A program made the position numbers. This document shows, in pieces, positions 21,001-24,000 of a stretch of 64,000 nucleotides of DNA. The DNA is from Escherichia coli O157:H7 (GTDB lineage: Bacteria; Pseudomonadota; Gammaproteobacteria; Enterobacterales; Enterobacteriaceae). The stretch lies in NCBI RefSeq assembly GCF_013167455.1, contig NZ_CP038328.1; one strand, written 5' to 3'. How positions within the stretch are numbered: the stretch's first letter is position 1; each line of letters begins with the position of its first letter.

Positions 21001-24000
21001 GCATTCAGCCTGGCGTCACCGCCACTGGCACGTATCTGCCTTCACGGGGATTTGCAACGATTTGGCCGCCGCCTCAGCCTGTATGTGAACACGGCAGCGG
21101 AAGCCATCCGGGCGCTGTCGTTACAGGTGCCGGGATTCCGCCGTCAGATGAACGAAGGCTGGTACCAGATACGTATTCGCGGTGAGGACACGGCACCGGA
21201 GGCGGTGTACGCCCGTCTTCACGAACCTCTGGGTGAGGGGGCGGTCATCCATATTGTGCCGCGACTGGCCGGGGCCGGAAAGGGTGGACTGCAGATTGTG
21301 CTGGGGGCGGCAGCCATCGTGGGCTCTTTCTTCACGGCCGGGGCATCAATGGCGTTATGGGGTTCAGCCCTGGCAGCCGGTGGTTTTTCTGCCACCACGA
21401 TGCTGTTCTCACTGGGTGCCAGCATGATACTGGGCGGTGTGGCCCAGATGCTGGCACCGAAGGCAAAAACACCGGAGTACAGGGCGACGGATAACGGTAA
21501 ACAGAACACGTATTTTTCGTCACTGGATAACATGATTGCCCAGGGGAACCCGATGCCGGTGCCTTATGGTGAAATGCTGGTTGGTTCACGACGGATATCC
21601 CAGGACATCAGCACCCGTGATGAGGGCGGAGACGGGAAAGTGGTGGTTATCGGGCGGGGATGAAAATAAAAAAATCCCGCAGAGTTAGCGGAGCTGCGGG
21701 AGAGAACGATGAAGATTAACGTTATGGAGTTATTTTTCAGGCATCAAAAAAGTAATGCAGCGTCATTATTGCGGCTACAGGCAATTGCCGGAAATGTGAA
21801 GAGTTTCAGAAATTTTATTCCGTCATGACACAGGCACCCTCCGGGGTGCCTGTTGTTTTCTGGCATAAACAGATTCAGACATCAGACAGGAGAGGGGGAC
21901 AGAGTGGGTAAAGGGGGCGGCAAGGGGCACACGCCGGTAGAGGCAAAGGACAATCTTAAGTCCACGCAGATGATGAGCGTGATTGACGCCATTGGTGAAG
22001 GGCCGATTGAAGGTCCGGTGAAGGGGCTGCAGAGTATTCTGGTGAACAAAACCCCACTGACGGACACGGACGGCAATCCCGTGATACACGGTGTGACCGC
22101 GGTCTGGCGCGCCGGGGAGCAGGAGCAGACACCGCCGGAAGGTTTTGAGTCATCCGGCTCTGAAACCGCACTGGGCGTGGAAGTGACGAAGGCAAAGCCG
22201 GTGACGCGCACCATTACGTCCGCGAACATTGACCGCCTGCGGGTTACCTTCGGGGTGCAGTCACTGGTGCAGACCACCTCACAGGGTGACCGTAACCCGG
22301 CATCCGTCCGCCTGCTGATTCAGCTGCAGCGTAACGGTAACTGGGTGACGGAAAAGGATGTCACCATTAACGGCAAGACCACCTCACAGTTCCTCGCTTC
22401 GGTGATTCTGGATAATCTGCCTCCCCGTCCCTTTAACATCCGGATGGTCCGGGAGACGGCGGACAGCACCACGGACCAGCTGCAGAACAGAACGCTGTGG
22501 TCGTCATACACCGAAATCATCGATGTGAAACAGTGCTACCCGAACACGGCGATTGTGGGGCTGCAGGTGGATGCGGAGCAGTTTGGCGGTCAGCAGATGA
22601 CGGTGAACTACCATATCCGCGGTCGCATCATCCAGGTACCGTCAAACTATGACCCGGAAAAACGCACGTACAGCGGCATCTGGGACGGCAGCCTGAAACC
22701 GGCATACAGCAACAACCCGGCCTGGTGCCTGTGGGACATGCTGACTCACCCGCGCTACGGCATGGGAAAACGCCTGGGGGCCGCGGATGTTGACAAGTGG
22801 GCGCTGTATGCCATTGCGCAGTACTGCGACCAGATGGTCCCTGATGGTTTCGGGGGCACAGAGCCGCGGATGACCTTTAATGCGTACCTGTCACAACAGC
22901 GTAAGGCGTGGGACGTTCTCAGTGATTTCTGCTCGGCGATGCGCTGTATGCCGGTATGGAACGGCCAGACGCTGACGTTCGTTCAGGACAGTCCGTCGGA
23001 TGTGGTGTGGCCGTACACCAACAGTGATGTGGTGGTGGATGATAACGGCGTGGGGTTTCGCTACAGCTTCAGCGCCCTGAAGGACCGCCACACGGCGGTG
23101 GAGGTGAATTACACCGACCCGCAGAACGGCTGGCAGACCTCCACGGAACTGGTGGAAGACCCGGAAGCCATACTGCGCTACGGGCGCAACCTGCTGAAGA
23201 TGGATGCGTTCGGCTGTACCAGTCGCGGTCAGGCCCACCGTGCCGGGCTGTGGGTGATAAAGACCGGACTGCTGGAAACGCAGACGGTGGATTTCACGCT
23301 CGGGTCACAGGGGCTGCGTCACACACCCGGTGACATTATTGAAATCTGTGATAACGACTATGCCGGGACCATGACCGGCGGACGTATCCTGTCCATCGAT
23401 GCCGCCAGCCGCACCCTGACACTGGACCGTGAGGTGACCCTGCCGGAGACCGGTGCCGCCACGGTGAACCTGATTAACGGCAGCGGTAAGCCGGTGAGCG
23501 TGGCCATCACTGCACACCCCGCGCCGGACCGGATACAGGTCAGCACCCTGCCGGATGGCGTGGAGACATACGGTGTGTGGGGGCTCTCCCTGCCGTCACT
23601 GCGTCGTCGCCTGTTCCGCTGTGTCTCCATCCGGGAAAACACGGACGGCACCTTTGCCATCACGGCGGTGCAGCACGTACCGGAAAAAGAAGCCATTGTG
23701 GATAACGGGGCCAGCTTTGAGCCACTGTCCGGTTCGCTGAACAGCGTCATCCCGCCGGCTGTGCAGCACCTGACGGTGGAGGTGAGCGCGGCTGACGGTC
23801 AGTATCTGGCACAGGCGAAATGGGACACGCCGCGGGTGGTGAAGGGCGTGCGCTTCAGTCTGCGCCTGACCAGTGGTAAGGGAACGGATGCCAGACTGGT
23901 GACCACCGCCATCACCGCAGACACGGAGCACCGTTTCAGCGGCCTGCCGCTCGGGGAATACACCCTGACGGTGCGGGCGATAAACAGCTATGGCCAGCAG

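Follow-up and report, generated by a model that had tools for sequence, protein, structure and literature searches.

An EcOnc22-type small RNA gene and a plus-strand hairpin in the spacer between tail genes I and J of an Escherichia coli O157:H7 prophage

Two Hfq-dependent prophage small RNAs (sRNAs) are the described systems closest to the element studied here, which lies in the spacer between tail genes I and J in a 64,000-nt stretch of an Escherichia coli O157:H7 genome (assembly GCF_013167455.1, contig NZ_CP038328.1; the whole stretch is called the window). The first is the set EcOnc22, EcOnc23, and EcOnc24 of E. coli O157:H7 Sakai, which were assigned to prophages Sp15, Sp14, and Sp11, respectively, on the strand opposite to the tail genes (Tree et al. 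2014, PMC4104026, Table S2). They gave a Northern band of ~85 nt, were crosslinked to Hfq in CRAC (crosslinking and analysis of cDNA), and were destabilised in an hfq deletion. The intergenic region ECs2942...ECs2945 was among the top 50 Hfq-bound regions, with nearly all of the signal on one strand (PMC4104026). A 2021 review still entered EcOnc22 with targets unknown.

The second is PasB of enteropathogenic E. coli (EPEC) E2348/69, an RNA of 83 nt whose minus-strand gene lies between E2348C_1436 and _1437 (Pearl Mizrahi et al. 2021, PMC8550237, Table S6) and was detected with the Northern probe AATCCCGCAGTGATCGCGGAGCT. It had 37 partners in RIL-seq (in which interacting RNAs are ligated and sequenced), mostly as the second RNA of the chimeras, was higher under non-activating conditions, and was strongly reduced in the Hfq comparison, for which Northern and RNA-seq data were reported. 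The matches to PasB reported in a 2026 survey differ by a few nucleotides only (Zhu, Shabalina & Storz 2026, bioRxiv 10.64898/2026.05.13.724894).

An sRNA gene opposite the tail genes

The I-J spacer of the window comprises 240 bp (21664-21903), compared with 60 bp in lambda (15445-15504). Its right edge is set by the GTG start codon of J at 21904, which shares its frame with the open reading frame (ORF) listed from 21853 and aligns to ATG-GGT-AAA of lambda. The initial annotation, made from the sequence, had described a spacer longer than that of lambda, with hairpins of both polarities, and it agrees with the results: lambda does not contain an identical spacer, and one strong hairpin was computed for each strand. 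The spacer very probably consists of two independent elements, a minus-strand sRNA gene (~21664-21821) and a plus-strand hairpin (21830-21861). The segment 21665-21821 is the most widely conserved part of the spacer, and it is exactly the DNA that is absent from lambda.

The spacer is identical, at 240 of 240 positions, to the I-J spacers of the Sakai prophages Sp11, Sp14, and Sp15, and the region is 100% identical to phage VT1-Sakai (AP000400.1). The Northern probe for EcOnc22/23/24, GGGAGAGAACGATGAAGATTAAC..., has a unique match in the window, where its first 23 nt are the plus strand at 21698-21720, and therefore the detected RNA is the minus-strand transcript, probed just upstream of its terminator. 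Mapping of EcOnc22 by coordinates was ambiguous, because the coordinates of Tree et al. differ from those of NC_002695.2, and the probe sequence resolved it. When placed on NC_002695.2, the published CRAC peaks fall at +22 to +84 from the J start. The shift between the two coordinate systems is +137 to +146 at 1.94 Mb (AgvB1 anchor) and at least +99 at 3.49 Mb (STnc100/EcOnc06 anchor), and such a shift, if it also held at 2.9 Mb, would put the CRAC peak at ~21752-21674; the STnc100 anchor in Sp15 was not decisive. Mapping of the EcOnc RNAs onto NC_002695.2 thus needs a correction for this offset.

The minus-strand element is EcOnc22/23/24 of E. coli O157:H7, and it is therefore already known; its locus, strand, approximate size, and Hfq binding and dependence are on experimental record. 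This settles the nature of the odd spacer: it is a published Hfq-dependent prophage sRNA gene, and neither a gap in the annotation nor a gene for a small protein nor a mere scar of recombination.

On the minus strand, the sequence CCCGCAG (21676-21682) pairs with CTGCGGG (21694-21700), and the stem is followed by an A (21675) and seven U residues (21674-21668). This pattern occurs once in the window, compared with an expectation of 0.01. The hairpin folds with -13.2 kcal/mol (z = -3.5) and was also flagged by the terminator scan, so that fold and scan agree with the T-run hairpin that had initially been read here. Together, hairpin and T-run are the terminator of the EcOnc22-type sRNA, which ends 5 nt past the stop codon of I. 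In an alignment of 17 phage versions, the stem and the A-run of the plus strand are constant, the terminator loop changes in sequence and length, and several short blocks are conserved. The U7 tract is the expected site for the proximal face of Hfq, as in Hfq-dependent sRNAs generally, and Hfq would be predicted to bind there.

The exact 5′ end, the promoter, the seeds, and the targets of the RNA are predictions. The conserved block GCRUUA lies 7 nt downstream of the -10 hexamer and suggests a start near 21758. Up to and including the U7 tract, the RNA would then measure ~91 nt, which is compatible with the ~85 nt Northern band. At the column of the -10 hexamer, other alleles have TATAAT, TATCAT, CATAAT, or GATAAT, and the AT-rich block upstream of the -35 may serve as a UP-like element. 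The consensus fold of 42 unique variants retains the terminator stem only. The A/U-rich body of ~60 nt is unstructured, and the U-run, AAYUCC, and UUAAUCUUC are unpaired. The sRNA of the window itself folds with z = -3.8, and two weak 5′ hairpins were predicted for it; they are not claimed as structure of the body, as the family consensus does not keep them. A Rho-independent terminator with a U-tail of at least six residues and an unstructured A/U-rich body, the build of Hfq-dependent sRNAs, are both present.

The sRNA gene would thus be self-contained, with its own sigma-70 promoter opposite to the tail genes and a transcript running from ~21758 to the U7 tract. The RNA, which according to the literature is bound and stabilised by Hfq, most likely pairs in trans with mRNAs in the lysogen, where the late operon is silent. 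The features of the spacer are collected in Table 1.

Table 1. Features of the I-J spacer and its borders (positions in the window)
Feature	Position	Strand	Remarks
Stop codon TGA of tail assembly gene I	21661..21663	+	ORF 20986-21663; annotated as I in VT1-Sakai; left edge of spacer
Predicted EcOnc22-type (PasB-family) sRNA, ~85-91 nt	21668..21758	-	5′ end placed from the -10 position and the GCRUUA block; 3′ end in the U7 tract
U7 tract of terminator (A-run on + strand)	21668..21674	-	kept in 42/42 unique variants
Stem-loop of sRNA intrinsic terminator	21676..21700	-	7-8 bp stem CCCGCAG/CUGCGGG invariant; 11-nt loop
Motif UUAAUCUUC, candidate seed	21711..21719	-	near-invariant in 20-42 aligned variants; unpaired in consensus fold; putative seed role
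Motif AACUCC (family AAYUCC), anti-Shine-Dalgarno-like CUCC, candidate seed	21726..21731	-	from alignments; putative function
Internal U6 run near sRNA 5′ end	21746..21751	-	U-run conserved in alignments
-10 hexamer AATAAT	21765..21770	-	every column aligned to TATAAT in the pasB promoter of E2348/69
Weak -35 TTCCGG (21793-21788) and AT-rich upstream block TCTTCACATTT ... GAATAAAATTTCTGAA	21788..21821	-	block conserved; putative -35
Hairpin, 10 bp stem (7 G-C pairs), loop UCCG, then UGUUUUCU	21830..21861	+	~40 nt upstream of J start; form of an intrinsic terminator
Two tandem TCAGACA heptamers	21875..21888	+	directly adjoin the J ribosome-binding site
J Shine-Dalgarno motif GGAGAGGGGG and start codon GTG (21904-21906)	21889..21906	+	from sequence and Sakai annotation; right edge of spacer

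For comparison, the locus of PasB was inspected. In the E2348/69-type allele, the plus strand of the terminator hairpin is the sequence of the PasB probe, and the neighbouring genes are those for a tail assembly protein and J. A scan of E2348/69 found the promoter TTCACA-16-TATAAT (11/12 matches) on the minus strand upstream of PasB. The locus is 74% identical to the window over the spacer, with the -10 hexamer, the terminator, and the motifs in register. This is not the close identity of the 2026 survey, and the window allele is therefore a divergent subtype, i.e. a homologue of PasB and not a PasB variant in the narrow sense. Judged by sequence, EcOnc22/23/24 of enterohaemorrhagic E. coli (EHEC) and PasB of EPEC belong, as alleles, to a single gene family with one fixed site. 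This goes modestly beyond the respective papers, as the link is stated neither in PMC8550237, where the note field of Table S6 is empty, nor in the 2026 preprint, the text of which does not contain "EcOnc".

Distribution, alleles, and tandem arrays

Related spacers were found in ~147 phage records, nearly all of them of Stx phages, and in 1840 of 5426 complete E. coli genomes, at up to 11 places per genome. As O157 strains have as many as 11 copies or alleles, functional work on PasB or EcOnc22 must account for this redundancy. When 100,044 species representatives were scanned, plausible matches outside E. coli came only from Escherichia albertii; the 41 others are chance matches in unrelated phyla.

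The sRNA unit (21664-21821) is only 66-78% identical to that of the window in phages in which the ends of I and J (21264-21663 and 21904-22304) are ~88-95% identical. A conserved frame surrounds the unit, which is a hypervariable cassette and varies more than any other segment of the tail region. Between alleles, there is reassortment of terminator loops, bodies, and promoter halves. The suggestion, made before this analysis, that the spacer is a mosaic joint was therefore right in so far as the segment is variable and mosaic, but the extra ~160 bp are a complete, experimentally detected sRNA gene.

The sizes of I-J spacers in IMG/VR contigs are ~235-254, 343, 424, 715, 850, and 910-920 bp. 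A spacer of 915 bp contains four tandem PasB/EcOnc22-like units, each with an A-run, a terminator, a body, and a promoter block. In the third unit, the terminator stem is different and compensated (TCTCCCGT/ACGGGAGA). This array is present in 67 of the 5426 complete E. coli genomes, mostly in non-O157 Shiga toxin-producing E. coli (STEC), where it is unannotated; examples are E. coli O91 RM7190 (NZ_CP015244.1 2095771-2096685) and the IMG/VR loci L091:682-1596, L052, L092, and L140. The four-unit arrays in some STEC and the hypervariability are small additions to what the cited papers report.

Other spacers contain replaced or inserted DNA. In the ~850-bp spacers (IMG/VR L041, L043, L061, L070, L097, and L110), the sRNA unit has kept its terminator and 3′ half, and ~650 bp of other DNA, beginning ...TAACTCAGAGAGGGAGGATG..., stand in place of its promoter half. 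In phage Stx2a_WGPS2 (L011, AP012537.1 ~43144-44720), the spacer has an insertion of an IS66-family transposase at its J end.

The hairpin in front of J

The second element is a plus-strand hairpin, ACAGGCACCC-tccg-GGGTGCCTGT (21830-21853), which is followed by TGTTTTCT. It folds with -27.2 kcal/mol (z = -5.4), and fold and scan both recover the hairpin with a T-rich run that had been noticed just before the J ribosome-binding site. Across 14 variants, 98.6% of the cells of the stem are paired. One pair follows the path C:G -> U:G -> U:A, and six cells are G.U, which on the opposite strand are A.C mismatches. These compensatory and strand-specific wobble changes argue that the structure is selected in the plus-strand, i.e. 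late, transcript.

Lambda (NC_001416 ~15467-15490) likewise has, directly before the J ribosome-binding site, a G+C-rich plus-strand hairpin that is followed by a U-rich run. This hairpin is non-homologous to that of the window, its stem is shorter (-16.5 compared with -27.2 kcal/mol), and the 60-bp spacer of lambda contains nothing else. A third, unrelated hairpin (-27.1 kcal/mol) occupies the same place in the 343-bp spacer type. The occurrence of three unrelated hairpins at one position argues for a function in front of J.

The 343-bp spacers, found in PPompW_699 (L017:560-740) and ~21 IMG/VR loci, have ~100 bp of unrelated DNA in place of the plus-strand hairpin of the window. Their hairpin, AAAACCCCGGUAUC-UGCU-GAUACCGGGGUUU, is preceded by an A-run and followed by a U-run and looks like a bidirectional terminator. 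Further downstream in the J leader, the TCAGACA heptamer is present in four copies in phage 2851 (L010), suggesting a repeat of variable copy number.

The plus-strand hairpin is most likely either a terminator or insulator that would be read through by Q-modified polymerase, or an mRNA stability element. An attenuation of transcription into J had been proposed for the spacer in general. It can apply to the plus-strand hairpin only, with its conserved plus-strand structure and its positional analogue in lambda, and not to the minus-strand hairpin, which is the sRNA terminator. In its specific form, hairpin and U-run would stop polymerase that lacks the Q modification and keep J, lom, the tail-fibre genes, and the cargo genes silent in lysogens, whereas Q-modified polymerase would read through. 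We put this forward tentatively, at somewhat less than even chances. The terminator-like form with 10 bp, seven G-C pairs, and the following UGUUUUCU is in its favour, as are the preservation of the stem via compensatory and plus-strand-only wobble changes and the non-homologous hairpins with U-runs that lambda and the 343-bp spacer type have at this position. However, the U-run is interrupted, the terminator scan did not report the hairpin of lambda, and stabilisation of a 3′ end after processing would explain the structure equally well.

Alternative readings and comparison with known systems

For the sRNA unit, pairing in trans has to be weighed against a role in cis. The minus-strand RNA could mainly pair with the I-J part of the late transcript of its own phage, or of a phage with the same allele, and thereby trigger RNase III cleavage or transcriptional interference that tunes or blocks J; this is compatible with the identity of the sRNA, and only the target would differ. 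An antisense gene inside the late operon, at a fixed site in about a third of the complete E. coli genomes (~1840/5426), would fit such a role, and so would the existence of tandem arrays of divergent units and the much higher variability of the unit than of its flanks, as expected for allele-specific recognition. But the RNA overlaps neither the coding sequence of I nor the ribosome-binding site of J, and it is expressed in lysogens, in which the late mRNA is absent. Moreover, PasB, with its many partners and its usual second position in the chimeras, acts like a classical trans-acting Hfq sRNA. We therefore regard pairing in cis as unlikely. An extension of it, which we consider improbable, is that the I-J spacer of lambdoid prophages is a dedicated hypervariable cassette site for PasB/EcOnc22-type sRNAs, the diversity of which would stem from allele-specific antisense action on the late I-J transcripts of related phages. 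It is suggested by the discrete alleles within conserved flanks, the one to four tandem units, and the one compensated terminator stem. If true, the cassettes would form a tail-level system of immunity or competition between co-resident prophages, and would not only regulate host genes, which is the speculative part.

Two further explanations do without an sRNA. That the spacer is a plain mosaic joint, i.e. junk DNA from the recombination of tail modules with functionless hairpins, might be concluded from the high divergence of the unit relative to the rest of the region, the recombination of allele parts between phages, and the landing of IS66 and other insertions in the spacer. Yet the architecture of A-run, invariant stem, motifs, and -10 hexamer in register is kept in 42-58 variants, the element is kept in a third of the complete E. 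coli genomes, and the RNA was detected experimentally in two pathotypes, so that published Northern, CRAC, and RIL-seq data contradict this explanation, which is hardly credible. The other concerns a tiny ORF, which had been seen in the spacer and is indeed present: an ORF of 39 aa lies on the plus strand at 21709-21828, with GGGAGAGAA ahead of it as a putative ribosome-binding site. It might be a moron that is translated from the late transcript, with the hairpin after it as terminator; the Shine-Dalgarno motif is plausible, and one phage record has a hypothetical protein annotated here. However, of 58 unique variants, 34 have ATG and 24 have ACG at the start (ACG in 46 of 121 loci), the length varies from 11 to 40 codons, with frameshifts, and the conserved first codons are complementary to the sRNA motif of the opposite strand. 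The flanking genes are not named in the supplements of the Sakai small-gene study, which is a weak point, as that study may use coordinates. Since neither start codon nor frame is conserved, the ORF was rejected as a conserved gene, and a small protein is very improbable.

Several results weigh against our own account of an sRNA gene with its own promoter and a selected hairpin in front of J. A promoter scan at the threshold of the tool called none in the window, where the -35 (TTCCGG) is poor and the -10 matches at 5/6 positions. The reported 5′ end of PasB, derived from read coverage, lies ~15 nt downstream of the start predicted from the promoter. The terminator stem is invariant and shows no covariation in the 42 unique variants, the IMG/VR variant set having been collected with a pattern that fixes this stem. 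Over its last ~10 nt, the text copy of the EcOnc22/23/24 probe shows small gaps relative to the window. A scan of 21000-22600 against Rfam at E <= 1 yielded no match, and the family is not in Rfam 15. For EcOnc22 and PasB, seeds and targets are at most predicted. For the plus-strand hairpin, the covariation comes down to a single compensated pair plus a few wobble changes.

An identity with the anti-sRNAs AgvB and AsxR was rejected, because those genes sit at the PR′ moron site and not between I and J. In the same vein, RF02702 and RF02703 had no match in the spacer at E <= 1, while the same models do find the AgvB copies in Sakai. The sole Rfam match at gathering score in the whole window is the MicC core sRNA (32309-32429, plus strand, 125 bits), which suggests a chromosomal micC neighbourhood ~10 kb downstream of J.

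The resemblance to AgvB and AsxR of Stx prophages is one of type. They are likewise prophage-encoded, Hfq-bound, and short; their 3′ part is conserved and their 5′ part variable, and a genome has several copies. With EcOnc22/23/24 of Sakai, the window shares the spacer sequence, the strand, and the probe match, and there is no difference within the spacer. The flanks in I and J are not identical, however, and the ~1.1-kb loci of Sp11, Sp14, and Sp15 are not exact substrings of the window. In addition, J is a single intact ORF in the window (21904-25377), whereas in VT1-Sakai and Sakai Sp15 it is annotated as two fragments and as "truncated by a mutation". The window therefore represents another prophage or strain with the same spacer allele. 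PasB differs from the window allele in the body and the terminator loop, and on paper the promoter of the window is weaker (AATAAT/TTCCGG compared with TATAAT/TTCACA), only that of E2348/69 being called by the scan. Nevertheless, both have the same I-J site, antisense orientation, terminator stem with U7, register of the -10 hexamer, motifs, and Hfq dependence, and the sizes of 83 nt and ~85 nt are nearly the same.

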